A stretch of 63,859 bases of DNA, filler included, from Chrysochromulina tobinii (taxonomy: Eukaryota): assembly GCA_001275005.1 (NCBI GenBank). It is 9 parts of 9 records of this genome, joined end to end, with 100 filler letters (N's around TTAATTAATTAA, not from the genome) between each part and the next. Parts side by side here need not be neighbours in the genome. Positions count along the whole stretch, not along the records: positions 33,597 to 48,212 come from JWZX01000006.1; 8 more parts are not named here. One strand, given 5' to 3'. The notes beneath the pieces were generated by a model, which saw nothing but the letters and a program-made list of their open reading frames with translations, did no database searches and had not been told where the DNA came from. Both the position numbers and the translations under genes were made by a program. Shown here piece after piece: positions 13,301 to 63,701 of this stretch; position 1 is the first letter of the stretch; each line of letters begins with the position of its first letter.

Positions 13301-15403
13301 CGCCCTCGCCGCCGCCGCCCTGCGCGCGCGTTACGCAAATATCCGCTCGTTCTGGTGGTTGTGTGGACTACCTCAGACTGGACTTCGACGATGGTTCATT
13401 CACTGCTTACGGGTCCCAAGGAAATCCAACGACCACATTCAATTTGCTGGCGGGTGAACATCTCGATTCTGTGTCCTGGACTCGATTCCAAGGTGGAGCA
13501 TATTGTCTTCCTGGCTGTGCGGTGACCTTCATTACTTCCTACGGACGCAGTGCCGGCATCAGCGGGTCATGGGGTCCTGCGAACGGCTGTCCTGCGCAAG
13601 CAGTTCAGTTTCCCAGTAACCAACGGCCGATTGTAGGGCTCAACTATTCAGCACCTGATGGGACCTCCATGTCCCAAGTTCTTATCGGTCCAATCACCAC
13701 GGTCTCTGCTTGCGCGGCGTCGCTTCCGCCCTCGCCGCCGCCGCCTTCGCCCTCGCCGCCGCCGCCCTCGCCGTCAGCACCACCGCCCCCGCTCGTGTGC
13801 AACTTCGTCGCGGGCGATGGCTTCGGCGGCGGTGCCGCATCGGAGTTGAACACCGGGTCTTCTTATGGCTCTGGGCTCGAATGCGCCGAAGCGGTCCGCA
13901 CCAGGTACCCTCTCGCCAACGGCGTCACCTACGGCCCCGGGGGCGTGTGCTGGGCCGAGTTTGGCATGCATAGCAGCAACCCTGCCTGGATTAATTGGAG
14001 CACGTGCCTCTTCGGCGGCTGGCCGTCACCCCCACCTTCGCCACCGCCGCCTTCGCCTTCGCCGCCGCCGCCCTCGCCGTCAGCACCACCGCCCCCGCTC
14101 GTGTGCAACTACGTCATGGGCTGGGTCGCCGTCTTTTCGGGGCTTGAGTACCTCGGGGCCCCCTTTGACTCTGGGCTCGACTGCGCCGTAGCAGTCCGCA
14201 CCAGGTACCCTCTCGCCAACGGCGCCGCCAGCCATGGGGGCAACGGCGCCTGCTATGCAGTATCTGGCTTGGTTAGTCTCGACACTAACACAGTTTGGCG
14301 CACGTGCCTCTTCGGCGGCTGGCCGTCACCCCCGCCATCGCTGCCGCCACCGTCGCCCTCGCCGCCGCCCCCGTCCTCGCCGCCTCCGCCATCGCCACCA
14401 CCGTCGCCACCACCACCCTCACCTCCGCCATCACCGCCGCCTCCGTCCCCACCACCATCGCCACCCCCGCCGAGCCCACCACCATCGCCGCCTCCTCCCA
14501 GTCCGCCTCCGTCGCCACCACCTCCCTCACCTCCGCCGTCACCGCCGCCACCCTCGCCGCCACCGTCTCCTCCCCCACCAAGTCCTCCGCCTTCACCGCC
14601 ACCCCCTTCACCACCACCGTCTCCACCACCACCATCGCCACCACCTTCGCCGCCACCTCCGTCCCCTCCGCCTTCGCCTCCACCGCCATCACCGCCGCCC
14701 TCGCCACCTCCTCCAAGCCCACCACCTTCTCCACCACCGCCCAGTCCACCGCCATCGCCTCCTCCTCCTTCGCCACCGCCGTCGCCCCCGCCCCATCACC
14801 GCCGCCTCCTTCGCCACCACCCGACGCCACCACCTTCGCCCCCGCCACCTTCCCCCCCTCCTCCTTCGCCTCCTCCTCCCTCGCCGCCTCCACCTTCTCC
14901 TCCACCGTCTCCTCCACCTCCCATGTGGTGTGACAACGCCTGCGTAGCCACCTTTGGGCGAACCGTGGTCGACGTGAGCTCCGATGGTACTTGCGATGAC
15001 GGAGGTCCGGGGAGTGAGTATCCGTACTGCAAAGTCGGCCACGATTGCGACGACTGTGGCCAGCGTTTCAAGTACCCGCCTTCACCGCCGCCGCCGTCGC
15101 CGCCGCCTCCTTCCCCGCCTCCACCATCGCCCCCACCTCCCTCTCCACCTCCTAGGCCTCCACCGCCTTCACCACCGCCGGAGCCTCCGCCATCGCCTCC
15201 ACCCCCGTCACCCCCACCGATGCCACCTCCTCCATCGCCGCCACCCCCGTTGCCACCTGCACCAGACGGCGGGTACAGCCCGCCTCCGCCCTCGCCGCCG
15301 CCTCCATCGCCACCTCCACCTTCCCCACCCCTCCCCTTCCGCCTCCTCCTTCGCCACCAAGCCCAACGCCACCTCCATCACCGCCGCCGCCTTCGCCTCC
15401 ACC
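10321..15403 (+). CDS. Mosaic SPPP (extensin-like) ORF: Cys-rich modules, EF-hand-like insert, ShK-like and jacalin-like domains; 3' truncated. A real gene may start at ATG 12787
   Basis: Four LVCN...CLFGGWP modules, CPVACGTC motif, jacalin-like RVTQISARSG..VDYLRL segment, long SPPP tracts, signal-peptide-like FALALLVLCAPQVSA after Met 12787. Confidence 0.55.
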
Positions 15404-15503
15404 NNNNNNNNNNNNNNNNNNNNNNNNNNNNNNNNNNNNNNNNNNNNTTAATTAATTAANNNNNNNNNNNNNNNNNNNNNNNNNNNNNNNNNNNNNNNNN
15501 NNN
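15404..15503. other. Artificial contig linker
   Basis: N44-TTAATTAATTAA-N44. Identical linkers at 25622-25721, 28222-28321, 31371-31470, 33497-33596, 48213-48312, 57044-57143 and 60319-60418. Confidence 0.97.
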
Positions 15504-25721: not shown

Positions 25722-27731
25722 GGCGCGGCGTTTGGCGACGCGTTCGTCAAGGCGGCGCAGCTGCCGGTAGCCGAGGGGGCGGCCGTGCCAGACAAGGAGG
25801 CGTGGCGGCTGCGCGTGCTCGCCACGCTCGTGCGCAAGGGGCTGCCTGCCGCGTGGCTGCCCACGGCGCTCGAGGCGGCCAAGGGCGTGGCGCGCGAGGC
25901 GGCGCACGAGGCGGGGAAGCTGGCTGCTGCCGACGCGCTCGTCGTGGGCAAGCGCGTGCTCGCCCTCGACGTGATCTGGAAGCAGGCCGTGGTCGCACGC
26001 GTGGAGGGCGACGCGGTGGACGTCAAGGTCCAGGGGTGGGACGAGAAGAAGGGCCTGCCGCGCACCAAGGCGCTCGTCGTCGCCTCCGACGGCGCGGGCG
26101 CGCTCCTCCGTCTCGCCGCAGGGGCGGGCGACGCGGCGCTCGTCGAGGCGCTGCTCGACGCGGGCGTCAACCCGCTCGTCGCCGACGAGCGCGCCAACAC
26201 GCCGCTGCACCGCGCCGCCGCCAGCGGGCACGTGGCCATCTGCCGTGCGCTCGTCGCGAAGGGCGCCGACAAGGAGGAGGAAAACACGCAGAACCAGTCC
26301 GTAGCCGGCGCAGCACAGAACGCCAAGCAGCACGCCGTCGTTCGCCTCTTTGAGCCGACGCTCTCGGACCGCGAGTTCACCGACGAGGCGTGCACGTGCA
26401 CGGAGCGGCTGCGCGCCGCCGCGACGGGGGACCTAGCGACCCTCGCACGCACGCAGGACGCGGGGAGGATCACGGCGCTCATGGTCGCGTCCCGCCGCAA
26501 GCAACTCGCGGCCGTCGTCAAGCTGCTGGCATCCTCAAACGCCTCCACGCTCAATGCGCAGAGCGCCGAGGGCTGCACCGCGCTCTACCTCGCCGCGGAG
26601 GAGGGCGCCGAGCCGATCGTGCAGCAGCTCCTCACTCAAGGGGCGGATGCGGCGCTCGCCGCTTCCGACGGTGGCACTCCACTCATGCGGGCGAGCCATT
26701 TTGGACACCAGCGCTGCCTTCACGTCCTGCTCGAGGCAAAGGCCGACCCAAATATGGCAACGCCCGACGGCGTGACCGCCTTGATGTGCGCTGCCCAAAC
26801 TGGCCACGAGCAGGTCGCTCTCGTCCTGCTCGAGGCGAAGGCGGACCCAAATAAGGCAACGCCCGACGGCGTGACCGCCTTGATCCTCGCTGCCCAAACT
26901 GGCCACGAGCAGGTTGCTCTCGTCCTGCTCGAGGCGAAGGCAGACCCAAATAAGGCAATGTCCGACGGCGTGACCGCCTTGATGTGGGCTGCCCAAAATG
27001 GCCACGAGCAGGTTGCTCTCGTCCTGCTCGAGGCGAAGGCGGACCCAAATAAGGCAACGCCCGACGGCGTGACCGCCTTGATATGGGCTGCCCAAAATGG
27101 CCACGACCATGTTGCTTTCGTCCTGCTCGAGGCGAAGGCGGACCCAAATAAGGCAACGCCCGACGGCGTGACCGCCTTGATCCTCGCTGCCCAAACTGGC
27201 CACGAGCAGGTCGCTCTCGTCCTGCTCGAGGCGAAGGCGGACCCAAATAAGACAATGTCCGACGGCGTGACCGCCTTGATGTGGGCTGCCCAAAATGGCC
27301 ACGACCATGTTGCTTTCGTCCTGCTCGAGGCGAAGGCGGACCCAAATAAGGCAATGTCCGACGGCGTGACCGCCTTGATATGGGCTGCCCAAAATGGCCA
27401 CGAGCAGGTTGCTCTTGTCCTGCTCGAGGCGAAGGCGGACCCAAACAAGGCAACGCCCGACGGCGTGACCGCCTTGATATGGGCTGCCCAAACTGGCCAC
27501 GAGCAGGTCGCTCTCGTCCTGCTCGAGGCGAAGGCGGACCCAAATAAGGCAATGTCCGACGGCGAGACCGCCTTGATGAAGGCTGCCCAAACTGGCCACG
27601 AGCAGGTCGCTCTCGTCCTGCTCGAGGCAGGAGCTGACCGGAACAAGGAGCTTTCTGGTCACAGCGGCTGGAATGCTCTGAAACTTGCGGAGATGGGTGG
27701 ACATTCTGCTGTCTGTGATTTACTGAGGTAA
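25722..27731 (+). CDS. Ankyrin-repeat protein, 5' truncated by contig edge
   Basis: TPLHRAA, TALYLAA, and nine near-identical 99-nt ankyrin units at 26733-27623. Confidence 0.9.
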   Translation, partial: GAAFGDAFVKAAQLPVAEGAAVPDKEAWRLRVLATLVRKGLPAAWLPTALEAAKGVAREAAHEAGKLAAADALVVGKRVLALDVIWKQAVVARVEGDAVDVKVQGWDEKKGLPRTKALVVASDGAGALLRLAAGAGDAALVEALLDAGVNPLVADERANTPLHRAAASGHVAICRALVAKGADKEEENTQNQSVAGAAQNAKQHAVVRLFEPTLSDREFTDEACTCTERLRAAATGDLATLARTQDAGRITALMVASRRKQLAAVVKLLASSNASTLNAQSAEGCTALYLAAEEGAEPIVQQLLTQGADAALAASDGGTPLMRASHFGHQRCLHVLLEAKADPNMATPDGVTALMCAAQTGHEQVALVLLEAKADPNKATPDGVTALILAAQTGHEQVALVLLEAKADPNKAMSDGVTALMWAAQNGHEQVALVLLEAKADPNKATPDGVTALIWAAQNGHDHVAFVLLEAKADPNKATPDGVTALILAAQTGHEQVALVLLEAKADPNKTMSDGVTALMWAAQNGHDHVAFVLLEAKADPNKAMSDGVTALIWAAQNGHEQVALVLLEAKADPNKATPDGVTALIWAAQTGHEQVALVLLEAKADPNKAMSDGETALMKAAQTGHEQVALVLLEAGADRNKELSGHSGWNALKLAEMGGHSAVCDLLR

Positions 27732-31470: not shown

Positions 31471-33496
31471 CCATCATCGCTGCAGAGTGCTCAGCACGCT
31501 CTGCGGGCTCAGCAAGCTCAGCAAGCTCAGCAAGCTCAGCAAGCTCAGCAAGCTCAGCAAGCTCAGCAAGCTCAGCAAGCTCAGCGTGCTCAGCGTGCTC
31601 AGCAGGTTCAGCATGTTAATTTTGCTCAGCATCCTCATCATGCCCAGCGAGCTCACTGAGCACGATGAGATCATGCTGAGCACGATGAGATCATGCTGAG
31701 CACAATAAGCATGCTGAGCATGCTGAGCACGCTAAGCTTGCTGAGCACGCTGAGCACGCTGAGCACGCTGCGGCGATGTTGGCGATGATGAGCCCACTGA
31801 GCACAATGAGGATGCGCGCTGACGGCTGAGCCCGCTGAGCATGATGAGGATGCTGAGCACGATGAGAATGCTCAGCCTGCTGAGCACGCTGAGCTTGCTG
31901 AGCTTGATGAGCGGGCAGTGCTTGATGAGCTTGCTGATCCTGAGCATGCTGCAGCGATGTTGGCGATGCACGATGAGCATGCTGAGCACACTGAGCGCGA
32001 TGTCGATGAGCTTGCTGAGCACACTGAGCACGATGAGGATGCTGAGCACGATGAGCATACGATGAGCATGCTGAGCACAGTGAGCATGCTGAGCCGGCTG
32101 AGCATGCTGAGCTTGCTGAGCATGCTGAGCTTGCTGAGCCTGCAGAGCACGCTGAGCACAATGCGGCGATGTTGCCGATAATGAGCATGCTGAGCCCGCT
32201 GAGCACCATGAGGATGCTGAGCCCGCTGGGCATGATGAGGATGCTGAGCAAATTTAACATGCTGAACCTGCTAAGCACGCTGAGCTTGCTGAGCTTGCTG
32301 AGCTTGCTGAGCTTGCTGAGCTTGCTGAGCCCGCAGAGCGTGCTGAGCACTCTGCAGCGATGATGGCGATCTTGCACAATGAGCTTGCTGAGCATGCTGA
32401 GCACAATGAGCTTGCTGAGCATGATGAGCTTGCTGAACACGCTGAGCACAATGAGCTCGCTGAGCACAATGAGCCTGCTGAGCCTGCTGAGCCTGCAGAG
32501 CACGCTGAGCTTGCCGAGCCTGCAGAGCACGCTGAGCTTGCCGAGCCTGCAGAGCACGCTGAGCATGCTGCGATGCACGATGAGCATGCTGAGCACGCCG
32601 AGCAGGCTGAGCATGCAGAGCAAGATGAGGATGATGAGCACAATGAGCACAATGAGCTTGCTGAGCTTGCTGAGCTTGCTGTGCTTCCTGAGCCTGCTGA
32701 GCACGCTGCAGCGATGTTGGCGATGCCCTATGAGCACTCTGCGCGCACAATGAGCACGATGAGCTTGCTGAGCCTGCTGAGCATGATGTGGATGCTGAGC
32801 ACAATGAACACAATGAGGATGCTGAACCCGCTGAGCATTAGCTGAGCATGTTGAGCCTGCTGAGCTTGCTGAGCACGCTGAGTAAGCTGGGCCTGCAGTG
32901 CACGCTGAGCACGCTGCGGCGATGTTGGCTGATGATGAGCCGGCTGAGCACGATGAGGATGCTGAGCCCGCTGAGCACAATGAGGATGCTGAGCCTGCTG
33001 AGCTTGCTGAGCCTGCTGAGCTTGCTGAGCTTGCTGAGCTTGCTGAGCTTGCTGAGCTTGCTGAGCCTGCTGAGCACGCTGAGCACGATGCTGCATTGTT
33101 GCCGATGATGAGCATGCTGAGCACGATGAGCACGATGAGGATGCTGAGCCCGCTGGGCATGATGAGGATGCTGAGCAAAATTAACATGCTGAACCTGCTG
33201 AGCTTGCTGAGCTTGCTGAGCTTACTGAGCTTGCTGAGCTTGCTGAGCTTGCTGAGCCCGCAGAGCGTGCTGAGCACTCTGCAGCGATGATGGCGATCTT
33301 GCACAATGAGCACGCTGAGCATGCTGAGCACAATGAGCTTGCTGAGCATGATGCTGAGTACAATGAACACAATGAGGATGCTGAACCCGCTGAGCATGTT
33401 GAGCCTGCTGAGCTCGCTGAGCACGATGAGCATGCTGAGCCTGTTGAGCCTGCAGAGCACGCTGAGCTTGCCGAGCCTGCAGAGCACGCTGAGCTT
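31471..33496. repeat. 9-bp-based (GCTGAGCnn) satellite with higher-order blocks and one inverted block
   Basis: The whole contig is GCTGAGC variants. Blocks at ~32171 and ~33098 recur; 31471-31650 is the reverse complement of ~33151-33293. Confidence 0.9.
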
Positions 33497-34911
33497 NNNN
33501 NNNNNNNNNNNNNNNNNNNNNNNNNNNNNNNNNNNNNNNNTTAATTAATTAANNNNNNNNNNNNNNNNNNNNNNNNNNNNNNNNNNNNNNNNNNNNTCGG
33601 CGAAATGATCAAGGCGCGTGCGGCAGACGCGTAGCGGCCAGCAGTGCGGCCGGAGCCCCCGATAAGCTCGAGACGTGAGAGGCGGAGGCGGGCATGCGCA
33701 ACGGCCGCGGCGAAGCCGACCTGGGAGCGCAGGTCTTTTTACCGGTATCCTGAGAGACCACTTTTTCGTCCAATTTGCGGACTTCTCTCTGCAAGCTGAC
33801 TGGTCGATGGCGTCCTGTGGCGTGGTGCCTCGGACTGCAGGCTCGGAGTGGGGAAATGCAGGCTCGGAATGGGAAAGGGAGTTGGACGCTGTCCTCCAAG
33901 AGGTTGACACGAGCGCCAAACCGATCCTTTACGTCCGCGCGTCTCAGTACTGCTCGAGGCTATAACATCGTGTCCACCAGCCTTGGCCCTCACCCGACCC
34001 TCACCCTGGCACACCCATGAAACGCGCTGCGACAACCTGGCCGCTATGCTCCCTCATGAATGGATCTGCTCGCTCAGGTATCATCGAATTTGTCAGAGAC
34101 GGTTAGAGCGTGGCCAACGAGAAGCCATCCGCCCAGCCCAGCCACGTCAGAAGGTGCCGAACCTCCCGGATCGCCCTTGCCCTCACTTGGTCAGCGCACT
34201 CTTCATGACGTATGATGTGCCATATGTTCTCTCCTCACGCTTGCAGTACCTACACGAGTCTCGGCATCTGCACGCACTTCAGCGGGCGCGTGGCCATAAG
34301 GGCCGCTTCACGCAGCAGAAAGGATGCGCCGCAGAAGTTCCGACCGATGCGTCCCACATTTTGGCTGCACCCATGGTCGCAGTCGAGCCGATGCAGCAGT
34401 AGATGCCACGGCGGCGCAATGCCAACGCACTCTAGTGACTAACGCACAACAATAATACGGCTTCCAACCATGTGAGCTCACTGTGTACCGCCGAAATGCC
34501 GTGCCCGGCAGGGTCCGTCTCGCTCACTCTGCACTGCCCGACGACGTGTTAGGCTGTTACGGAACGGTCGACGAGCGCCGTCTCTACGGTTACGCGGTAG
34601 GTCTCCGCCACAGCGCACGCGCGCGGGCCGCGGGGCCGGGAGCGCGACGCGTCAGCGTCTGCAACTGCATCGTGCATCACGGGGACACGGGCTGTGTACG
34701 CGATCGTTGGGCCCATCGCGATACATTTATCGTATCGAATTTCCTTTCGACTGTTTACTCAATACACAGTGTCAAGTTGTGGTTCGACTTTCGGTTTGAC
34801 CGTGTCCCACACAAGTTTGACCGTGTCCCACACCAAAACGAGTTACAATTCTTGCGAGACGGTCTGAACTGTGTGCTCAAGCTGCTCACTCGCTCGACGC
34901 TGAGGAGCTGC

Positions 34912-36968: not shown

Positions 36969-38156
36969 ATGCAAGAGCCCTTGCGCGAGATGACCGTCGT
37001 CCTGCTCGGCGACAGCTGCATTGGGAAGTCAGCCTTCTTCGATCGTGTCGTGCATGAAACGGACACGCACCAGAGTACTGATGCGTACTCCCCGGGGGCT
37101 TACGGTCTCCCGCACATGTGCAATAATCTTGGTAGCACAGTGGTGGATCACGACGGGCATCGTGTCAAGCTGAACCTGGTGGATATTGGCGCTGCCATCA
37201 AAACCCGACACATCAATGTGCCAGCTGCAATGCACATGGCACAGATGAACTGGCTCGGCACACCCAGCAGTGCCGGACCCGTGATATTTATTGCTGGCTT
37301 TGATTCGACCTGTAAGGACACCTTCGCACGCCTCGAGAAGGATTGGCTGTGCCACATTCCTGCCACGGCGGGTTCAGCAGTCCACACCGTCCTCGTTGCC
37401 TACAAAAGTGACTCCCCGACGCGCCGGGTCGAGTTGGCGGAAATGTGGTCATTGGCCGATTCACATCCGTTGCTCGAAGACAAGCCCGTGTTTGAAGTGG
37501 ACTCTTTCACCGGTCGTGGTGTCGACGAGTTGTGTATTCACATCGCATCGATGTGGGACAACTGCCGGCTCGAGCGCGCCACGCGCTTCGACAGTGCAGG
37601 GCGCGAGTTGATGCAGGCGGCCAGCCGCGCAAGGGACAAGCTCCGGCAGATTGCTGATGCGAATGGATGGAGCTCTGTCGACGCGAGCAACTCGGCTGAG
37701 GGGGCGGATGTGGCGACTAACTCTCTTGGCCACCTCAGTCTCGGGCCGATTGCAGCCGCGGGCTTGAAGACGACGTGTCAGGCTGCGGCAACCGTTGTCG
37801 GTGCCGTCGCTCTCCCAGCAGTGGCAGGCGGTGTCATGCTCGCAGGCGTCGTTCGGGGAGTCGGAGCCAGCCTCGCCGACAAAGATGTGGACGAGTACGA
37901 GTTTGGAGACGCCTCCAGGCGCGCCCTCGGCGCGCTGGCAGGCAAGCCTGCCGACGAGTACCAGTTTGGGGATGCCTCCAGGCGCGCCCTCGGCGCGCTG
38001 GCAGGCAAGCCTGCCGACGAGTACCAGTTTGGAGATGTCTCCAGGCGCATGTTCGCGGCATTTACTGGCACGAGGCCGAGCCGCCCGCCGCCGTCGCCGC
38101 CGCCGCCACCAGTACTGAGTCCACTCAACTCAACTCCACCGCGTGGCGCACCGCGA

Positions 38157-40550: not shown

Positions 40551-43500
40551 TCAAATCGGCAGGAACGCCAAAGGACGATGGCCGCTCTCGGACGACGAAG
40601 GCCTCTTCATCGCGAGCGCTCGCGCGACCAAGGCTGCGACCGGCCCAGGCGACTTTGGCTTCTCCTTTGCTGCGGGACTCGCATTGGTATTGAGGGCGCC
40701 CAGCATTCGCCTCGGCTGCCCGGGCGTAGGTCGGGACGCCCCAGACTGCAGGTGCGGCTCAAGGTGCTTCGACGGAGTGCTCCGCTCAGGGCTCCTGCCT
40801 CCCTCAATCATTTCGGGCTCGCCTGATGCGCCCCATCGAATCTCCTCCGAATGAGATCGAATCTCCTCCGAATGAGATCGAATCTCCTCCGAATGGGCAC
40901 TGAGATCGATGGCGCTGCTGCCTGCAGAGTGCTCGTGTGCTCCACGCGCCTGGAGAGCAGTCTCGGTCCTCCCCAGCTTCTCCTGCATGCAATGCAATGA
41001 GACACACTCAGTGGATCTCGAGACGCACTTGCATGCAATGCAATCAGACGCACTCAGTGGATCTCGAGAGGCACTTGTACGCAATGCAATCAGAGGGTTT
41101 TCGAGAGGCACCTGCATCCTCGCCAGCTCATCGGCTGCCATGCGCAAATTCTCCTGTAGCCTCGCCACCTCGGCTGCATGCACCTGGGCAGCCCGGCTCG
41201 CCTCCGTCGCCAGCGTCGCGCTCACGTCGTCATTATGTAGCACGCATGCCCGCAGTGCCGCCGCCTCCTCCCTCAGCACCCCCAGCGCGCCTGCATGCTC
41301 CTCCCTAATTCTGCCGAGCGCTTTCGTATGCTCGTCGCGCAGCGCCCCAATTGCCCTCGTATGCTCTGCCTCCGCCACCTTCTGTGCCAGCCGCAGTGAC
41401 GCGAGCTCATTCAGCAAGGTCGACTCACCCGTCGCGTCCTCGAGCCGTCCTTTTTCTTGCTTCACGAGCTCGAGCTGCGCCTCGGCCGCCGCCCGAGTGA
41501 GCTTCGTCAATTGGAGCCGGAGCGAGCTCACCTCCGCCTTCGCCTTGTCAAGAGTGGCCGCCTCCGCCTCCACCGTCTCCCCGAGGCTCAAAAAGAGCTC
41601 CTCCTCGAGCTCCGCCGCCTTCGCCTCGCTCGAGCGCGCCCTCTTCTCAAGCTCCGCCACCTTGGCCTCGCTGACCCGTGCCTGCGCCTGCGCCCGCGCC
41701 TCGACCTCTGCCACCCGCGCGATCGCTGCCTCCACCTCCGCTGCCTTAGTCTCAAGTACCGCCTGCATCTCCGCCTGCATCTCCGCCCTCTTTGCCGCCA
41801 GCGCCGCCTCGTGCACGGCGCGCGCCTCCGCCTTCGCCGCGGCCAGCTTCTCACCCGCCTCCTTCATCACCGTCCGCACGGCAAAAACTGCCTCCTCCAT
41901 CGCCGCTGCCGCCTCAGCCTTGTCGAGTGCCCGAGCTCGCTGTTCCACAGCAAGCGCCTCCGCCAGCTTCTCTGCAGCCCTCGCGCGCTCCTCCGCCCGT
42001 ATCGCACCCTCTTTCTCCTGCTCCCTCACCTCATTCCTTCGCCGCTCCTCCGCGAGCACCTTCGCTACCGCCGTCTCGATCGCCGCCTCGCGGTCGTGGG
42101 CCGCTCGCTCCGCTGCCACCTCCTCCGCCCTTGTATGCTCAGCGTCGGCGAACTCAAGCGCCGCGGCAACGTCCGCCGCATGTGCTTCGGCTGTCTGCAG
42201 GGCGTCCGCCTTCGCCTTCGCCTCGACTTGCGCCGCCTTGTGCGCCGCGGCGGCCTCCATTTCCACAAGCGTGGCGGCGCGTGCGGCGCGTGCGGCCGCC
42301 GCCGCAGAGGTCGCGACCACTTCTTCTCGCAACGCCTTCGCCACCGCTCGCTCTGCCGCGACGGCCTCCTCCAATGCCGCTGCCGACCTCGCGGCCGCCG
42401 CAGTCAGGGCCGTTGCCAGCGTCGCCTCGTGTGCAGCACGTGCCTCCGCCAGCGCTGCCGCTAGCTGCTCGGCCGCCTCCGCCGCCATCTCCACCCGTAC
42501 GGCTTTGACCGCCTCCGCTAGCTGCTCGGCCGCCGCCTCTGCTGCTTTGCGCGCCACCTCTGCTGCCTGCGCCTCCCTCGCCTCCGTCTCTGCCTGTTTG
42601 ACCGCCTCCGCTGCCGCCCAGGCAGTCTCCTCCGCCTGCACCGCGCGCGTGCTCAGAGCATCGATTTGCTCCGCCATCAGCGTTCGGAACAGAGACGCTC
42701 GGCGCTCGTGATGTGCGCCCTCCTCCCTCACCGCCGCCTGCACCGCCGCCTGCACCGCCACCTCCACCCGCGCAGCCGCGCTCGCAAGCTCCCTCGCCAT
42801 TTCCTGCGCGTGCTCAGCGTCGGCATCCGCCAGCGCCGCTCGCAGCGCCGCACAGTCCACCGACGCTCGCGCGTCGAGGTCGACGAGCGCCTCGTGCAGG
42901 CAATCGTCTGGGGTCGTGAAGAGCCGATGAGGTGCGTCCGTACAAAGAAGCTGCGAGTCCCAGTGCGGCTTCAGGGGCGGCACTGCCGATCGCGGACTTG
43001 GCGGAGGGCCGATGGTGCTCACCGCCTCACCGAGCGCCGCCCCGAGCGCTTCTTGCGCACCCCGATCCACCGGCCGGTCTGGCTGCTGCAACGTTTGGTT
43101 GTGCACCCTCTGGGCCCGGGCCGCGAACAGAAGTGTGCTCAGGGTCTCGGCCTTGCATGCGGCGAGCGGGCTCACGTTTGCGACCAGCCACGTGCGAGCA
43201 CTCCCCCCCAGAGAGTCTCTCAGTAGCTGCGTGAGTTTCGAGTCGCGGTAAGGTACGTGTGGCCGCCCCGCATTGAGTGCCTGGATCATTCCCGAACGCG
43301 TTCAGAGTCAGACAGAGTCAATCGTACGCAAGTCGAGGCAATTCGAGAGGCAATCATCACGGTGCCACACCCCTCTCGCCAGATCACCTACCTGGATCAC
43401 TCCTGACAGTGCCGAGAGGCTTCGGTTGATGGAACAAGCCTCATCCAGCAGCAAGCTCTCATCCTCGGCGCAGGCCGGCATACCCAACTCCGAGCTCGAC

Positions 43501-44363
43501 TGTGAGACGCGGGCCTGCCGCTCCGAGCCGGCGAGATCCACGAGATTGAGCTGAGAGGTTCGTACCTGCAACACGAGATCAACGAGATTGAGCTGAGAGG
43601 TTCGTACCTGCAACCCGAGATCCACGAGATTGAGCTGAGAGGCACGTACCTGTAACCCGTCGCTCGCACGCGTGACGCGCTGCAGCCGCAAGATGAAGAC
43701 TGCATGCGAGCGCGAGGAGTGGTCGTTCAGCAGAGTGGACGCAACGGTTCGGCGTCGCGTCCCGAGCGCGAGCGTGCGCAGCGCCTCGGCCGCAGAGCGC
43801 AGCTGCACTTGCTTCAGGCCATCGACAAAGGTCCCGCGAGCATCAGGAGCCTCACGCAGGCGCAGTGACGCTGACGCGGGCGCGAGAAGGTCGGTGATTT
43901 GATCGTTGTGGATCTGCAGGAAGCTGCAGCTGCAGTAAAAGGTAGCACCGGCGTCCGCCGTCGAGGCCTCGGCATCAAACTCGGCTTGCTGCCGACGCGC
44001 GAGCTCGCCAAGGGCCTCCTCGAGCAGCCGTGGCAGCAAGCCACGGTCGTCCTGCTTGCCGCCCGTCATGGTGTACGTCTTTCCTGAGCCCGATTGGCCG
44101 TAGCACAAGATGGTCCCGTTGTAGCCGCCCAGGAAGGCATCGAGCGTCGGACGTCCCACCACGTCGAAGACACGCGCTTGCGAGGTGCCCTCGTCGCCGG
44201 CTTGATCAAAAACAAAGGAGCGATTGTCGAGCACGACCTCGGACCGACTATCAGTGGCACCGTCGGCTGAGGAACGAACCGAGATCGTTCGCGTACGCTC
44301 GCGAGCCCCTTTGTGGCTGCGCACCCGAACGAAGACGGACACCGGTTGGAAGGGGGCGGTCAT
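40551..44363 (-). CDS. Kinesin motor protein (kinesin-12/KIF15-like) with coiled-coil stalk; introns 43566-43649, 43281-43391, 40983-41111
   Basis: GQSGSGKT, SSRSH, LVDLAGSER, HVPYRDSKLT, ETLSTL. GT-AG intron 43281-43391 joins the two ORFs. Confidence 0.9.
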
Positions 44364-44572
44364 CAATGAACACTTTCAAATCGCTCGCCGTGTGCCCTTC
44401 ACACTCGCCTTTGTACAAGTAGGAACATGATTGGTACGTGTCGAGCGTCTGAGCCCCTTGGGGAGGCCTGGTGAGACTTCTTTCAAGCCTTGATTGTCTT
44501 CGTCATTGTAGAATCCTTATCCGTGATCGATCTCTTCGGGGCTCACATATCGCGGCGAGGGGAACGACAGCG

Positions 44573-45235
44573 ATGGCCGCACCACCATTCCACGTGACGG
44601 ACGACTTTGCGTGGAATCTGGAGCACTTTGTTATCCCCGAACACTACGCTCCGGATCTTGCCTCGGTGATGATCTCCCATGGCCTCATCCAGGATCGCAT
44701 CGACCGGCTAGCAAACGACATCTGCAAGGCGTACGACTTCCATGGCTCCGGAGCCAGGCTGCACATGCTGTGCGTGCTCAAGGGCGGCCATCAATTCTTC
44801 TCCGATTTGTGCAACGCCCTCAAGAAGCTCACGCTGGTCGGTGTGAAAGAGCCGCCGCTCACGTTTGACTTCATCAGAGTGAAATCGTATCACAACACGG
44901 AGAGCTCGGGCGATATCACGATCGAGACGGTCGGCATCGACCTGCCGTCGCTCAAAGGGCGGAACATCCTCCTGGTGGAGGACATCATCGACACCGGCGC
45001 AACCATGTCGAAGCTCGTACCCTACCTGCAAAGCTACGAGCCCACCTCGGTGCGCGTGGCGACGCTCCTCAAGAAGCGCACGCCCAAATCGAACGGCTTC
45101 GAGGCGGACTTCACGGGCTTCAGCATCCCCGACAAGTTTGTCGTCGGCTACTGCCTCGACTACAATGAGGTCTACCGGGACATGGAGCACATCTGCATCA
45201 TGAACGAATCCGGCATAAAGCGCCATGCTAAGTGA
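44573..45235 (+). CDS. HPRT: Hypoxanthine-guanine phosphoribosyltransferase
   Basis: LCVLKGG, DFIRVKSY, LVEDIIDTG (PRPP-binding), FVVGYCLDYNE. Confidence 0.96.
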   Translation: MAAPPFHVTDDFAWNLEHFVIPEHYAPDLASVMISHGLIQDRIDRLANDICKAYDFHGSGARLHMLCVLKGGHQFFSDLCNALKKLTLVGVKEPPLTFDFIRVKSYHNTESSGDITIETVGIDLPSLKGRNILLVEDIIDTGATMSKLVPYLQSYEPTSVRVATLLKKRTPKSNGFEADFTGFSIPDKFVVGYCLDYNEVYRDMEHICIMNESGIKRHAK

Positions 45236-46091
45236 GCTTATTATTTACGTGTTTCTGAGACACTGATGGGATTCTTGGGATAGTTGGTTAGTTACACGTG
45301 TGGCCGCCAAGCCTGCAGTGGCCGGCCTATGAGGTGTGCTATTCCCACCGCAGCCCCCCGACGCGCCAGGGTCCGAGCTCAGCGCGGTCGCGGGACGCGC
45401 ACCTCTTATTTCGTAACGTGCGATGCCGAGGAGGATGACCGCGTCGTGTTGGTTATCGTCGGTTTTGGTTGCAGGTTTTGGTTTTCCCTTTTCCGTTTAC
45501 CATTTCGTTTAACCATACTCGATACCGCATACGGTATCCGGAGAAATAACATCGAAAATTCGACATAAAATTGGCTGGAAATTCTTTGATTAAATGACAT
45601 AAAAATGATGATTAAACAAGGTTTAGAAGGTCAAGGTGCGTACACACACCGTGGTTCACACTCACACCGTGATTCACACCCATTAGCCGGCCTCGACCGC
45701 CGCCGAGCGACAGCGGACGCCCCGCAGGTGGTCGCAAAGTCCGCGGTCCTCCGTTCACATATGACTCGAACAGAAGAGAAGGAATACGCTATTCTCGATC
45801 CCGCCCACCTTCGCCCACCCGGGTATCGACCTCTGCAATAAGGTATAAGGCAGCGCGATCCCCCTCTACAGCCTCTGTGAGCTCTAGCCCTAGTGAGTAG
45901 TGAATTGCCCCGCCATGTTCCAATGCTCCACCATTGATAAGAGCTGTAAGAGGCTCGGTAAGAGGCCACCCTCTGCCCCCAGTGCGCTTCAACAGGGTGG
46001 ACCTGCTTCGTCCCAACGCTCACCCTCCCCGCCCTAACATGCCCCACCACCCGCGGCCCCCAGCGCGCTTCACCAGGGTTGACCTGTCACG

Positions 46092-47903
46092 TCACCTGGC
46101 CACGTCACCAGGGTGGACCTGCTTCGCCCCAACGCTCTCTGCGCTCTCTCGAGCCTCTCGTTTGCAGATCCCTTGCTTGGCTCTCGGGGCCGTGCACCCG
46201 GCGATGCCTGTTCGGCACGTCACATACTGTGAGCAGTCATTGGCGGGTGCAGGGCTGTAAGAGCCTGGCCGGTTGTTCGTCCACCACGCCCATCCAGATT
46301 CGGGCAACGTTACGCGGAATGGCTTGGCTGTCTGCAGCCCCGAGACGCGGTTGTACACGAGGACGCACATGTCGTAATTACCGTTGGCAGCGCTTGAGGG
46401 GATCGTCAGAGCAAAGTGAAAGCTGCGAGACGGTGTAGAGCCGGCATGCATCGTGGTGCCTACCGTCACGACGTCACCGTAGTAGGAGACCTTGCCCCAA
46501 CCGGCGGGGAGATTGACGACATCAAGAGCAAATGTAGACTGTCCACAGCTGCCCTCGTCGACGTCCTCGGCCTGGCTGACCTTCCAGTAGCCCTTGCGCG
46601 TAGCCCCCGCCACGCTCGACACAGCCTTCAGCTCATCGATCAATGATTGGGTCTCGCAACTCGAGCAAGAGCCGTCCATCAACAGCTCATACTCCCCAAA
46701 GAGACCCGCGCCGATGCGTGGGTAGTCGCGGTAGCACGTCGTGTCGATGCAGCCATACTCGACCGTGAAGTTCACCGAGAGCCCGTCGGGACTCGGCCTC
46801 ACCTGGCTCAGTTTGATCCCAGTCGTCTGATCCACAAACGTCTTACCGGCATTAAGCGTCACCTTCACCATCTCTCCGTCTTGCCATGCTTCGCTGTCGG
46901 CGTATGCGCCGCCGCCGCACATCTGTCGCGTCGCATCGATGAGATAGCCCTCCTTATGCAGGAACAGCCCGGCTTGGTTGTATGCGACTTCCGGGTAGCT
47001 TCCGCTGTTCCACGTGTTACCGGCGCCAGAGCCGATGAATTCAACCCAAATGCCGTCTGCCTCGGTGCTTCCGGCAGGCGTGCGCACAAATGCCGCCCGC
47101 TTCAAGGAGCCCACCGAGGGCACCGCGGACATGGGTGCGTTCAGCGCGCCGATCGTGAACGTGCCCGCGCTCGTCACGCCTAAGACTTCATCGCTCCCAA
47201 ACCAGCCAAGATAGTAGCGTGCCCGTGCGCGGAATCCGGCGAGGAGCTTTGCGCCGCCCACGGTGTCGAACATGTCTCCATACTCGTACAACGTGCATTT
47301 GAGAGTATTGGAAGGCTCGGAGAGGCACTGATACGCATTGCTGTGCTGCTGGTATCGGAACATGTGTAGCATCTCGTGCATCATCCCGAGCTGCGACACT
47401 GGGAGAGGGCACGACCATCCGGAACATGAACTCTGCAGGACTACACTCGCCCTCACACTATTGAAGAGGAAGTTGGATGTGACGCTGATCCCGTTGATCG
47501 TTCTCACACACTGTTGCCCGATGATCCTGAAGTGGCGCACTCGTCGTTGACTACCATTATGATGATCGTGTCGTAGTTGGCAGGCACGAAGCTGCTGGTA
47601 GTCTGTATGTTGTTTGGAAGGTTGAACGATCGCGCACGAGCCATCATTTCTCTTCTCGGCGATGCCGAGCGGCGCGGCGAAACCATCAATATCGTATGAA
47701 GCACATCCAGATGATGCATTCGTGATAAAGGTTCGGAATGCGCCGCCGGCATAGAAGCTGGCAATCGCGCTGGCCGGCGGCGATGGCACGTTAGAAAACG
47801 TAAGCGCTAGCAGCGCGAACCTGTGGGACGTTCCGGACTTGGGAGCGGGGGGAAGTGCCCAGCTACGAGGGAGCGCTGGAATCGCCGGCTTGCACGCTGG
47901 CAT
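46092..47903 (-). CDS. Zinc metalloprotease, gametolysin/M11-like; both ends uncertain
   Basis: HEMLHMFRYQQH zinc motif followed by YEYGD..DTVG and YYLGW; Cys-rich beta C-terminal region. Confidence 0.7.
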   Translation of the reverse strand: MPACKPAIPALPRSWALPPAPKSGTSHRFALLALTFSNVPSPPASAIASFYAGGAFRTFITNASSGCASYDIDGFAAPLGIAEKRNDGSCAIVQPSKQHTDYQQLRACQLRHDHHNGSQRRVRHFRIIGQQCVRTINGISVTSNFLFNSVRASVVLQSSCSGWSCPLPVSQLGMMHEMLHMFRYQQHSNAYQCLSEPSNTLKCTLYEYGDMFDTVGGAKLLAGFRARARYYLGWFGSDEVLGVTSAGTFTIGALNAPMSAVPSVGSLKRAAFVRTPAGSTEADGIWVEFIGSGAGNTWNSGSYPEVAYNQAGLFLHKEGYLIDATRQMCGGGAYADSEAWQDGEMVKVTLNAGKTFVDQTTGIKLSQVRPSPDGLSVNFTVEYGCIDTTCYRDYPRIGAGLFGEYELLMDGSCSSCETQSLIDELKAVSSVAGATRKGYWKVSQAEDVDEGSCGQSTFALDVVNLPAGWGKVSYYGDVVTVGTTMHAGSTPSRSFHFALTIPSSAANGNYDMCVLVYNRVSGLQTAKPFRVTLPESGWAWWTNNRPGSYSPAPANDCSQYVTCRTGIAGCTAPRAKQGICKREARESAESVGAKQVHPGDVAR

Positions 47904-48314: not shown

Positions 48315-50000
48315 GGCCACCTCGCCGGCAAGAGTGGCCCGGAGCTCGGGCGGCTGCTGGGTGTCGTGAGCGACTTCCCCACCGAGGCGGAGCGGCAGGC
48401 AGCGACGGAGGAGCCCCTCTACACGCAAGACGCTCAGCACGACGCCACCGCACCGCGAGCGGCCGACGCACCCACACCGCCAGCGCCCGTGTGCTGGCTC
48501 TCGACACAGCTCGTCAACGAGGACGTCCTCGAGGACGCCCTCGCGGACGCCGACGTGCCGACGCTGCGCGCGCTCAAGGGCGTGAGCCTCGCGTGGCGCG
48601 CGCGGGCGCGGCGCGTCCTGTGCGCGCGGCTGTGCGCACGCGTCGGCCTGCCCCTCACGAGCAACCTCGTCGAGGTGACCGAGCTCAACCTCTCGGACAG
48701 CCGCACCGCCGGTCGCCTCTTCGCCGACGCGGTCGACGCGTCGCGCTGGCTGCCCAACCTGGCAAAGGTGACGGGGCTGGGCGGCTTCGAGGTGGACGTG
48801 GCCGCGCTGAGGAGTGTGGCGTCTTCGGATGGATCAGAAGAAGATGAAGATGGTCCGCAACCGTATCCGATGGCAGGGGTGCGCGCATGCATCCGCGGCG
48901 AGGGCGAGGCGCCGATGGAGGTGCTGCTTGCCGCGTGCGTGCTGCGCCGTGGCGAGGCGCGCGTGCCGCCAAGCGCGTTCTTCGAGGACAGGTCGATTAC
49001 GTCGATCGCGCTGCCCGCCGGCCTCACGAGCGTCGGTGAGTTCGCCTTCTGGGGCTGCTCCTCGTTGACGTCGATCGAGCTGCCCGCGGGCCTCACAAGC
49101 CTCGGTGAGGACGCCTTCTCTGGCTGCTCCTCGATGACGTCGATCGAGCTGCCCGCCGGCCTCACGAGCCTCGCTGAGCGCGCCTTCTATGGCTGCTCCT
49201 CGTTGACGTCGATCGAGCTGCCCGCCGGCCTCACGATCCTCGGTCGTGGCGCCTTCGTCGACTGCTCCTCGTTGACGTCGATCGAGCTGCCCGCCGGCCT
49301 CTCGAGCCTCGGTGAGTGCGCCTTCGCTGGCTGCTCCTCGTTGACGTCGATCAAGCTGCCCGCCGGCCTCACGAGCCTCGGTGAGGTCGCCTTCTGTGGC
49401 TGTTCCTCAATGACGTCAATCGCGCTGCCCACCGGCCTCACGAGCATCGATGAGGACGCCTTCTATTACTGCTCCTCGTTGACGTCAATCGAGCTGCCCG
49501 CCGGCCTCACAAGCATCGGTCATGGCGCCTTCCGTGACTGCTCCTCGTTGACGTCGATCAAGCTGCCCGCCGGCCTCACGAGCCTCGGTAAGGAGGCCTT
49601 CACTGGCTGCTCCTCGATAACGTCGATCGCGCTGCCCGCCGGCCTCACGAGCATTGGTGAGGGCGCCTTCAAGGACTGCTCCTCGTTGACGTCGATCGAG
49701 CTGCCCACCGGCCTCACGAGCCTCGGTAAGGAGGCCTTCTATGGCTGCTCCTCGATGTCGTCGATTGAGCTGCCCGCTGGCCTCACGAGCCTCGGTAGGT
49801 ACGCCTTCTATCGCTGCTCCTCGATGACGTCGATCGAGCTGCCCGCTGGCCTCACGAGCCTCGGTGAGGGCGCCTTCTCTGGCTGCTCCTCGTTGACGTC
49901 GATCGCGCTGCCCGACGGCTTCGATGAAAGCATTCTCAGGTTCGCCCAAGTGCCACCCAGCGCCATCCTTCGCTTTGGACCGGCAGTTGACGTCGATTGA
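48315..50000 (+). CDS. Skp1-F-box-BspA-type LRR protein, copy A (5' truncated, 13 LRRs)
   Basis: GKSGPELGRLLGVVSDF (Skp1 tail), EDVLEDAL...LKGVSLAWR (F-box-like), 69-nt repeats at 48993-49889. Confidence 0.85.
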   Translation, partial: GHLAGKSGPELGRLLGVVSDFPTEAERQAATEEPLYTQDAQHDATAPRAADAPTPPAPVCWLSTQLVNEDVLEDALADADVPTLRALKGVSLAWRARARRVLCARLCARVGLPLTSNLVEVTELNLSDSRTAGRLFADAVDASRWLPNLAKVTGLGGFEVDVAALRSVASSDGSEEDEDGPQPYPMAGVRACIRGEGEAPMEVLLAACVLRRGEARVPPSAFFEDRSITSIALPAGLTSVGEFAFWGCSSLTSIELPAGLTSLGEDAFSGCSSMTSIELPAGLTSLAERAFYGCSSLTSIELPAGLTILGRGAFVDCSSLTSIELPAGLSSLGECAFAGCSSLTSIKLPAGLTSLGEVAFCGCSSMTSIALPTGLTSIDEDAFYYCSSLTSIELPAGLTSIGHGAFRDCSSLTSIKLPAGLTSLGKEAFTGCSSITSIALPAGLTSIGEGAFKDCSSLTSIELPTGLTSLGKEAFYGCSSMSSIELPAGLTSLGRYAFYRCSSMTSIELPAGLTSLGEGAFSGCSSLTSIALPDGFDESILRFAQVPPSAILRFGPAVDVD

Positions 50001-61811: not shown

Positions 61812-63701
61812 TTGAAGCGACGTCGGGTCGGCGGCGGCGGAGACAGCGGCGACGGCGACGTCAACGGCGGCGACGGCGACGACGGCGTTGTGAGGGCGCG
61901 AAGCGCCGAGGGCGAGGAGGTTGTGTGGTCCCGTTCGGCCGCGGCGCGATCGGCGGCGCTCGCCAACTGGGTGAGCGACACGGGCGGCGCCGAGGGGGCG
62001 TTCGCCACTCTGGTGCCTGCGGCTGCGCTCCGCACGCTCTCGCGCGTCGCCGAGGGCGGTGCGGAGGATGGCGGGGCGCTAGAAGGGTGCTCGCTCGCGC
62101 AGCTCGCGCAGCTTTTGCATGGCGCGCACTTTCTCGACGTGGACGTCGAGCTTCTCCGCCTCCTCTCGCGTTCCCTGTGCACCGGCCACCTCGCCGGCAA
62201 GAGTGGCCCGGAGCTCGGGCGGCTGCTGGGTGTCGTGAGCGACTTCCCCACAGAGGCGGAGCGGCAGGCGGCGGCGGAGGAGCCGATTTACACGCAAGAC
62301 GCTCAGCACGACGCCACTGCACCGCGAGCGGCCAACGCACCCACACCGCCAGCCACCGTGTGCTGGTTCTCGGCGCAGCTCGTCAACGAGGACGCCCTCG
62401 AGGACGCCCTCGCGGACGCCGATGTGCCGACGCTGTGCGCGCTCAAGGGCGTGAGCCTCGCGTGGCGCGCGCGGGCGCGGCGCGTCCTGTGCGCGCGGCT
62501 GTGCGCACGCGTCGGCCTGCCGCTCACGAGCAACCTCGTCGAGGTGACCGAGCTCGACCTCTCGGGCAGCCGCGCCGCCGGTCGTCTCATCGCCGACGCG
62601 GCCGACGCATCGCGCGGGCTGCCCAGCCTGGCAAAGGTGACGGGGTTGGGCGGCTTCGAGGTGGACGTGGCCGCGTTGAGGATTGTGGCGTCTTCGGGTG
62701 ACTACTCGTACCCGATGGCGGGAGTGCGCGCGTGCATCCGCGGCGAGGGCGAGGCGCCGATGGAGGTGCTGCTCGCCGCATGCGCGCTGCGCCACGGCGA
62801 GGCGCGCGTGCCGGCGCACGCGTTCCGCGGGGACACGTCGATGACATCGATCGCGCTGCCCGCCGGCCTCACGAGCATCGGTGAGGGCGCCTTCTATGGC
62901 TGCTCCTCAATGACGTCGATCGCGCTGCCCGCCGGCCTCATGAGCATCGCTGAGTTCGCCTTCTCTGGCTGCTCCTCGTTGACATCGATCGAGCTGTCCG
63001 CTGGCCTCACGAGCATCGGTGATAATGCCTTCGATGGCTGCTCCTCGTTGACATCGATCGAGCTGCCCGCCGGCCTCACGAGCATCGGTAGGAGCACCTT
63101 TTACAACTGCTCCTCGATGACGTCGATTGCGCTGCCCGCCGGCCTCACGAGCTTAGGTGAGGCGGCCTTCTGGGGCTGCTCCTTGATGACGTCGATCGAG
63201 CTGCCTGCAGGCCTAACGAGCCTCGGTGGGTACGCCTTCTATGGCTGCTCCGCGATGACGTCGATCGAGCTGCCTGCAGGCCTCACGAGCATCGGTGGGT
63301 GCGCCTTCTGGGGCTGCTCCTGGATGACGTCGATCGCGCTGCCCGCCGGCCTCACAAGCATCGGTTGGAAGGCCTTCTCAGGCTGCTCCTCGATGACGTC
63401 GATCGCGCTGCCCGCCAGCCTCACGAGCATTGGTGGCGCTGCCTTCAATGGCTGCTCCTCGTTGACGTCGATCGCGCTGCCCGCCGGCCTCACGAGCATC
63501 GGTGGGTGCGCCTTTTACAACTGCTCCTCATTGGCGTCGATCAAGCTGCCCGCCGGCCTCACGAGCCTCGGTGATGACGCCTTCAAGGGCTGCTCCTCGT
63601 TGACGTCGATCGAGCTGCCTGCGAGCTTCGATGACAGCACTCTGAGGTCCGCCGGAGTGCCTCCCAGCGCCATCCTTCGCTTTGACTTCGCTTTGCACTG
63701 A
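61812..63701 (+). CDS. Skp1-F-box-BspA-type LRR protein, copy B (11 LRRs; start codon unclear)
   Basis: LAQLLHGAHFLDV..LL...AGKSGPELGRLLGVVSDFPTEAE (Skp1), F-box-like segment, 69-nt repeats at 62838-63596. Confidence 0.85.
   Translation: MKRRRVGGGGDSGDGDVNGGDGDDGVVRARSAEGEEVVWSRSAAARSAALANWVSDTGGAEGAFATLVPAAALRTLSRVAEGGAEDGGALEGCSLAQLAQLLHGAHFLDVDVELLRLLSRSLCTGHLAGKSGPELGRLLGVVSDFPTEAERQAAAEEPIYTQDAQHDATAPRAANAPTPPATVCWFSAQLVNEDALEDALADADVPTLCALKGVSLAWRARARRVLCARLCARVGLPLTSNLVEVTELDLSGSRAAGRLIADAADASRGLPSLAKVTGLGGFEVDVAALRIVASSGDYSYPMAGVRACIRGEGEAPMEVLLAACALRHGEARVPAHAFRGDTSMTSIALPAGLTSIGEGAFYGCSSMTSIALPAGLMSIAEFAFSGCSSLTSIELSAGLTSIGDNAFDGCSSLTSIELPAGLTSIGRSTFYNCSSMTSIALPAGLTSLGEAAFWGCSLMTSIELPAGLTSLGGYAFYGCSAMTSIELPAGLTSIGGCAFWGCSWMTSIALPAGLTSIGWKAFSGCSSMTSIALPASLTSIGGAAFNGCSSLTSIALPAGLTSIGGCAFYNCSSLASIKLPAGLTSLGDDAFKGCSSLTSIELPASFDDSTLRSAGVPPSAILRFDFALH

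Follow-up and report, generated by a model that had tools for sequence, protein, structure and literature searches.

Probable recent gain of a spliceosomal intron by tandem tripling of a CAG|GT exon segment in a kinesin gene of Chrysochromulina tobinii

Can the source of a spliceosomal intron still be recognised in the gene that carries it? To our knowledge, most reported intron gains are without a traceable source, and the clean duplication cases with which we make comparison below are either old, supported by no more than one EST, or based on a construct. The question is raised again by a kinesin gene of the haptophyte Chrysochromulina tobinii, in which a preliminary description made from the sequence had proposed an intron built purely by tandem duplication of an exon segment carrying a CAG|GT site. 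We analysed this gene within a 63,859-nt stretch of DNA (assembly GCA_001275005.1; GC content ~63%, close to the 63.4% published for Chrysochromulina tobin in PMC4580454), referred to here as the window, and found that three 42-nt units stand in tandem in the gene, that RNA skips exactly 84 nt of them, and that there are relatives with a single unit. The skipped stretch (43566..43649, minus strand) is very probably a spliceosomal intron, likely of recent origin, which would have arisen from the tandem tripling of a 42-nt exon segment containing CAG|GT. At this locus the source is still intact, several runs provide transcripts, and there are single-copy alleles whose proteins differ by about 1%, and the splicing efficiency of a newborn intron, the minimum-length threshold and the later selection on splice signals become testable in nature.

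The kinesin gene and its tandem array

The kinesin gene lies on the minus strand in three exons, with a start codon (ATG at 44363) inferred from homologues; the motor domain is Pfam PF00225 and the closest solved relative is human KIF15 (E = 1e-46). Exon 1 (43650..44363) is an open frame with a Pfam Kinesin match (E = 3e-64) and RNA cover, and ends in ...TTACAG. It is followed by the 84-nt intron, which is GT..AG, in phase 0 and free of stop codons in frame, by exon 2 (43392..43565; VRTSQLNLVDLAGSER...SGVIQ) with RNA contigs over 43391-43560, and by an older 111-nt GT..AG intron (intron 2; 43281..43391) seen in joints from RNA runs X15 and X16, in a loose end from X13, and in the read-through of a sister lineage described below. 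Exon 3 (40551..43280) encodes the end of the motor domain (Pfam Kinesin 269-327) and an Ala/Glu-rich tail, and may hold more introns. With both introns removed the gene reads as one uninterrupted frame of 1204 codons beyond the ATG, which is near the 1018–1173 amino acids of the likely orthologues. An intronless HPRT gene (44573-45235, plus strand) is placed head to head with the kinesin gene, with ~210 nt between the two start codons, and its named matches in Prymnesium parvum (65%) and Chrysotila carterae (61%) stand above those in other named taxa, which makes a haptophyte host likely.

A tandem-repeat scan of the window identified an array at 43532-43659 with a period of 42 nt (3.0 copies, 93% matches, 0 indels, score 221). 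The array consists of three 42-nt units plus 2 nt, and has a 2-nt CG microhomology at either end. Read on the minus strand, each unit encodes (G/V)LQVR(A/T)SQLNLVDL with AGSER directly after the last unit, and each contains CAGGTACG with its CAG|GTACG site, just as the preliminary description had pointed out; these are the only three CAGGT sites within 44360-43392, and the unit has no further copy in the window. The first 10 nt of unit 1 (43618..43659) are exonic and the remainder is intronic, with the donor in use, CAG|GTACGT, at 43649. Unit 2 (43576..43617) is entirely intronic, and includes both an internal CAG|GT (43608/43607) and TTGAT (43582-43578), which is the sole match in the 84-nt intron to the YTNAY branch consensus (as quoted in PMC3265369) and, with its A at -14, a putative branch site. 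The first 10 nt of unit 3 (43534..43575) close the intron with the acceptor TTGCAG, whose last letter is at 43566, and the remainder belongs to exon 2 where it encodes the strand preceding switch II.

The three copies are genomic rather than an artefact of assembly. Contigs from X1, the one run of 11 DNA runs used for this check, cover 42900-43569, 43543-43611 and 43585-45300 at depths of 60–79, with one 33-nt piece at a depth of 120. Repeated 31-mers, computed from the window, start in this stretch only at 43540-43542 and 43582-43584, and at three copies these predict both the contig breaks and the doubled depth of the 33-nt piece. It should be noted that X1 is possibly the source of the window, and so excludes mis-assembly of that sample but does not represent an independent strain. 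A pattern scan of metagenomes found two loci, both with three units: L002, which is identical to the window across 43100-44500, and L001, which represents a second strain. The layout and depth of the X1 contigs and the L001 locus agree with the three copies first read from the window.

The proposal that the intron was built purely from duplicated exon is borne out by its sequence, as 78 of the 84 letters are the same as in the retained exon, six differ, and there is no foreign sequence. Comparison with L001 indicates that two of the six differences go back to a single synonymous TTG>TTA change in the exon of the window allele. All four intronic letter changes fall on splice signals: a two-letter change (including A>T at donor +6) gives the donor GTACGT, a G>T creates TTGAT 14 nt before the end of the intron, and a G>T directly before the acceptor provides one extra T. 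The donor change is common to the window allele and L001, which has only this change and is without the TTGAT. These substitutions may represent refinement of the splice signals or chance (between the window and L001 there are 9 differences in 1401 exon letters, 3 in the 128 letters of the array and 2 in the 111 of intron 2, too few for a test of selection). The GTACGT...TTGCAG ends and the putative branch site TTGAT at -14 are as expected of a U2-type intron.

RNA evidence for the 84-nt skip and how it may be read

RNA contigs from X12, X13 and X15, three of the six RNA runs, join 43560 to 43645 with 8 letters that fit both sides (these are assembled cDNA contigs with a depth of 3–5, and a single campaign may have produced all six runs). 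Four other runs, X18–X21, contained almost none of the words searched for. Cutting this joint at +5 gives CT..AC, which is GT..AG on the minus strand, and an intron of 43649-43566; the splice that had been predicted is therefore found exactly, in contigs crossing 43500-43700 without the 84 nt. X14 adds an 18-letter loose end which makes the same 84-nt join, along with two kinds of unspliced piece, one spanning donor 1 (43597-43674, depth 2) and the other from intron 2 (depth about 2). Among the pieces listed, X16 and X17 have no joint at the site, no joint for a 42-nt skip is listed in any of the six RNA runs, and the DNA run X1 has no joint at the site. RNA depth was zero in four intergenic bins in four RNA runs, from which DNA carry-over seems low. 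Across 14.3 kb in four RNA runs there are three canonical joints (with end repeats of 8, 9 and 2 letters), and three introns are confirmed in the window, of 84, 93 and 111 nt. The 93-nt example is an ordinary GT..AG intron (34154-34246, plus strand) confirmed by X12 and X16 with 2 letters of ambiguity, and the RNA joint of intron 2 has a 9-letter ambiguity. The spliced kinesin segment equals that of the single-copy homologue P0124 and aligns here to KIF15 without gaps.

Splicing is a much likelier cause of the 84-nt skip than an artefact of reverse transcription, in which the enzyme would have switched template between the repeats and the cell would translate all three units to give a longer surface loop, a reading to which we give very little credence. 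Reverse transcriptase can produce deletions between direct repeats, and the 8-nt identical window at our junction is comparable to CD19, where 8-nt repeats are found at the base of a hairpin (PMC8240250); however, the ends of the skip are canonical (donor GTACGT, acceptor TTGCAG), and four libraries converge on the one 8-letter window holding AG|GT, which is 8 of the 120 letters of available homology. Identical stretches suited to a 42-nt jump are 6, 8, 19, 7, 33 and 7 letters long and those suited to an 84-nt jump 2, 3, 8 and 27 (the stretch of 33 is common to units 2 and 3, and that of 27, away from the crossover, to units 1 and 3), yet the longer stretches of 33, 27 and 19 nt are without a joint among the joints listed. 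Folded by itself, the 131-nt region has sites 1 and 3 paired (z = -1.39), but once 50–150 nt of flanking sequence are included, site 1 of the window allele pairs with site 2 instead (10.5–11 expected pairs), and with site 3 at no more than 0.2 expected pairs (the L001 fold with flanks is less decisive than that of the window allele). Pairing of sites 1 and 2 predicts a 42-nt jump, and there is none among the joints listed. Although every RNA dataset is cDNA, the unspliced frame is open, the structure model tolerates the insert, and five of 139 family representatives have at least 41 residues between SRSH and DLAGSE here (some of which may be retained introns), the skipped form is an unbroken contig in each of X12, X13 and X15.

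It is a little less probable still that the intron is real but removed 42 nt at a time by way of the middle AG|GT, that is by recursive splicing with a zero-length exon, to leave an identical final mRNA. The middle site is a full acceptor-donor pair, the joining of donor 1 to acceptor 2 regenerates CAG|GT, and the two-unit proteins (10 of 47), should they be real, would imply a 42-nt intron; against these points, the joints listed for the six RNA runs do not include a 42-nt joint, the confirmed introns of the window have the lengths given above, the sole YTNAY match serves acceptor 3, and recursive splicing is described for long introns in the portions of the literature available.

The preliminary description held that splicing restores a single switch-II motif, and in this it was partly right, as the mRNA is indeed single-unit, but DLAGSE is single with or without splicing and what is tripled is the preceding strand. 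A second expectation, that the unspliced protein would have 28 residues inserted in the motor core, is not supported by an AlphaFold model of this protein (pLDDT 81), which predicts a surface loop-out with switch II intact. In the model, residues 264-275 of the third unit form the strand and residues 232-263 a low-confidence loop following the previous strand; with the third copy as the strand and the first two looping out, the 28 residues are likely to be outside the core (the model covers the protein up to the motor part beyond intron 2, and the alignment sets homologues on the third unit, which biases this outcome). The spacing between SRSH and DLAGSE is 27 residues in the single-unit alleles and in KIF15, and 27–28 residues in 103 of the 139 representatives. 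The insert site is presumably loop L10, between strands 6 and 7. L10 is termed a surface loop elsewhere (PMC3919264).

Under the origin we propose, the ancestral exon would have had one CAG|GTACG, and slippage or end-joining at the 2-nt CG microhomology would have added copies of 42 nt head to tail, in two rounds or in one. The spliceosome would then join the first GT to the last AG in one step and skip the middle site, probably since an intron of 42 nt is too short or since this site is weaker or paired, and the mRNA would again encode the ancestral single-unit motor. Unspliced molecules would be in frame and have merely a longer surface loop, making an early inefficient stage tolerable, and an insert which keeps the frame in a tolerant loop could allow a poorly spliced young intron to survive without nonsense-mediated decay. 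Intronic substitutions would begin to build up from this point, including A>T at donor +6, TTGAT at -14 and the extra T before the acceptor.

Single-copy relatives and the direction of change

The homologue set consists of six protein clusters with 88–98% identity and 74 members, of which 48 are listed and 47 cover the site (one is too short). Three units are found in 14 of these 47 homologues, two units in 10, and one unit in 23. The homologous proteins read through into intron 2 and are therefore likely to have been derived from genomic DNA. The single-unit proteins include 16 from the sister lineage, six near alleles and P0204; the sister lineage is single-copy throughout (16/16) and its intron 2 has diverged. 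In the near lineage, the intron-2 markers N..T are found in 23 of 24 multi-copy proteins and K..M in six of seven single-copy proteins (Fisher p = 6e-5 for this association, in which the rows are not independent). P0204 is single-copy on a multi-copy haplotype and is probably the result of collapse or contraction, and in P0207, which is also single-copy, a His replaces the Gln whose CAG codon makes the splice site. In exon distance, multi-unit proteins differ from one another by 0.45%, from the near single alleles by 1.2% and from the sister lineage by 1.8%. Distant orthologues with about 50–67% identity all have one unit, and amongst the 139 of 150 family representatives which have both motifs, the duplicated strand is seen only in the kinesin gene's own cluster.

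A protein tree constructed with the repeat excised and without P0197 and P0201 required 3 changes of the copy label, compared with 13.9 for shuffles. The multi-copy group was not a resolved clade in this tree, in which support was low, and a single origin of the group was not rejected (p-AU 0.31). The linked single-copy haplotype, the 16 single-copy members of the sister lineage and the one-unit distant orthologues together suggest that a single-unit ancestor with a recent gain of the array is likely.

It is scarcely credible that the intron is older, or that collapse in assembly or secondary contraction produced the single-copy relatives and there was no recent gain from a living single-copy state. 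Tandem repeats can be collapsed by assemblers, as seems to have happened in P0204, the tree does not fix the root of the group, and the single-copy alleles are known from proteins alone. Against this, the single-copy state is linked to distinct haplotypes, eight of the 23 single-copy proteins are from Logan, whose X1 contigs broke at the repeat and were not collapsed, the near single-copy alleles share sister-lineage states (the N-terminal SASFH, a His at one site, and the extra Ser of P0215), the units are 93% alike, and the distant orthologues examined are all one-unit.

It is possible, though we regard it as doubtful, that wild alleles span the birth of the intron, with one unit and no intron in some, two in others (an additional 42 nt that would splice poorly for lack of length, and a 14-residue loop extension that would be tolerated), then three units which are spliced, and finally three units whose signals are being sharpened by substitutions segregating at present. 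Were this true, the establishment of an intron could be measured stepwise in one gene. The two-unit forms may be true intermediates or collapses; none of the 10 has the unit-3 marker found in eight of 14 three-unit proteins (p = 0.006), which is predicted by both readings, and none of the 10 is from Logan.

Several other differences between these alleles were observed. An extra Ser at the junction 43650/43649 (GLQ-S-VRT) is found in 14 of the 16 sister-lineage proteins plus P0215 (P0126, P0209-P0223), and as predicted from the protein this would break CAG|GT in that phase. Among the three-unit alleles (P0121, P0182-P0195) the two visible intronic variants, A in unit 1 and V in unit 3, are combined in each of the four possible ways, and this points to recombination, to conversion among the units, or to chimeric assembly. 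The 3' end of intron 2 (43281-43391, minus strand) repeats the end of exon 2 in decayed form, with 15 of 20 and 20 of 30 letters matching; the sister lineage shares this intron and the distant orthologue proteins lack it, and it may therefore represent an older gain of the duplication or introner type.

Comparison with reported intron gains and other features of the window

The kinesin locus shows every feature tested of the route by which an exon segment with AG|GT, duplicated in tandem, gives rise to an intron. This is the Rogers model described in PMC3265369 and PMC4974935, and the earlier suggestion that the intron fits the classical tandem-duplication model stands, but natural examples can no longer be called rare in general, as a 2012 review (PMC3443670) gives 188 events for this mechanism in Table 1, making it an established one. 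The event lists behind this number may contain closer precedents, and in the available part of a 2016 paper (PMC4974935) few clean exon-only cases are named. The kinesin intron adds to this established mechanism, and is notable in combining a source that is still intact with support from transcripts and with single-copy alleles that are close to it; we found no earlier report of this intron, or of any Rogers-type intron in haptophytes, in open-access full text.

The intron of ATP2A1 (PMC3265369) is alike in that a duplicated AG|GT gives the donor and acceptor and the protein is unchanged once spliced, but it is more than 420 million years old with an inferred origin, and re-enactment in a construct was 6–16% spliced, whereas the kinesin copy is still 93% intact, is skipped in natural transcripts, and has single-copy relatives which are ~1% of exon residues away. 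The nearest precedents are SPOG_01682 and SOCG_00815 in fission yeast (PMC3629103, Zhu and Niu 2013; PMC4974935), which have introns in 24-nt tandem arrays, and here too the intron extends over several short exon-derived and non-identical units with proto-splice sites and transcript support. These differ in having AGGC sites and one EST per case (one EST contradicts the annotation), and the part of PMC3629103 available makes no mention of single-copy alleles; in contrast to these arrays, that of the kinesin gene sits in a conserved and otherwise non-repetitive enzyme domain. Drosophila tandem-duplication introns (PMC2891723) also have a duplicated proto-splice site, with later improvement of the signals predicted, but are at least 5–10 million years old and all have stop codons, and in Neurospora NCU09740 (PMC4317165) the proto-splice site is duplicated too, but in a 614-bp copy; unlike the Drosophila and Neurospora cases, the kinesin intron is short, stop-free and in frame. 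Finally, the introners of Chrysochromulina sp. (PMC9860276; Gozashti et al. 2022) are also recent, of similar size and from a haptophyte, with one splice site from the duplicated host sequence, but they carry their own sequence and duplicate 4 bp. We considered and rejected the identification of the 84-nt intron as such an introner because nothing foreign has been inserted between target-site duplications.

Elsewhere in the window, two direct-repeat pairs on the plus strand at 10551/10841 and 13905/14204 (291 and 300 nt apart, with CAG|GTACCC in each copy) are candidate introns of the same type, and were among the pairs listed in a window-wide scan for repeat-flanked AG|GT pairs which was dominated by coding repeats. 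An in-frame 63-nt repeat with CAG|GC sites (2.5 copies) is found at 37890-38048 on the plus strand, in a gene whose start appears small-GTPase-like by eye; no RNA joint is listed here and the listed contigs end before or within the repeat.

RNA contigs covering 46109-47133 and 47825-47857 mismatch the window (11 in 465, 8 in 322 and 7 in 201 letters), and with so many mismatches it seems that a paralogue rather than the window copy is expressed. A 1506-letter X12 contig continues beyond 39588 for at least 255 letters which are unlike the window. Uniform gaps of 44 N, 12 letters and 44 N are found at 15404, 25622, 28222, 31371, 33497, 48213, 57044 and 60319, and the window may join several pieces at these eight positions. 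The tandem-repeat scan returned 121 rows for the window, many of them in frame, plus long low-complexity runs, with repeat-rich stretches at 26723-27628, 48999-49919, 62838-63619, 31489-33494 and 14347-14852. These repeats also include 99-nt and 69-nt arrays, the periods of which we take to be ankyrin-like and leucine-rich-like, respectively.
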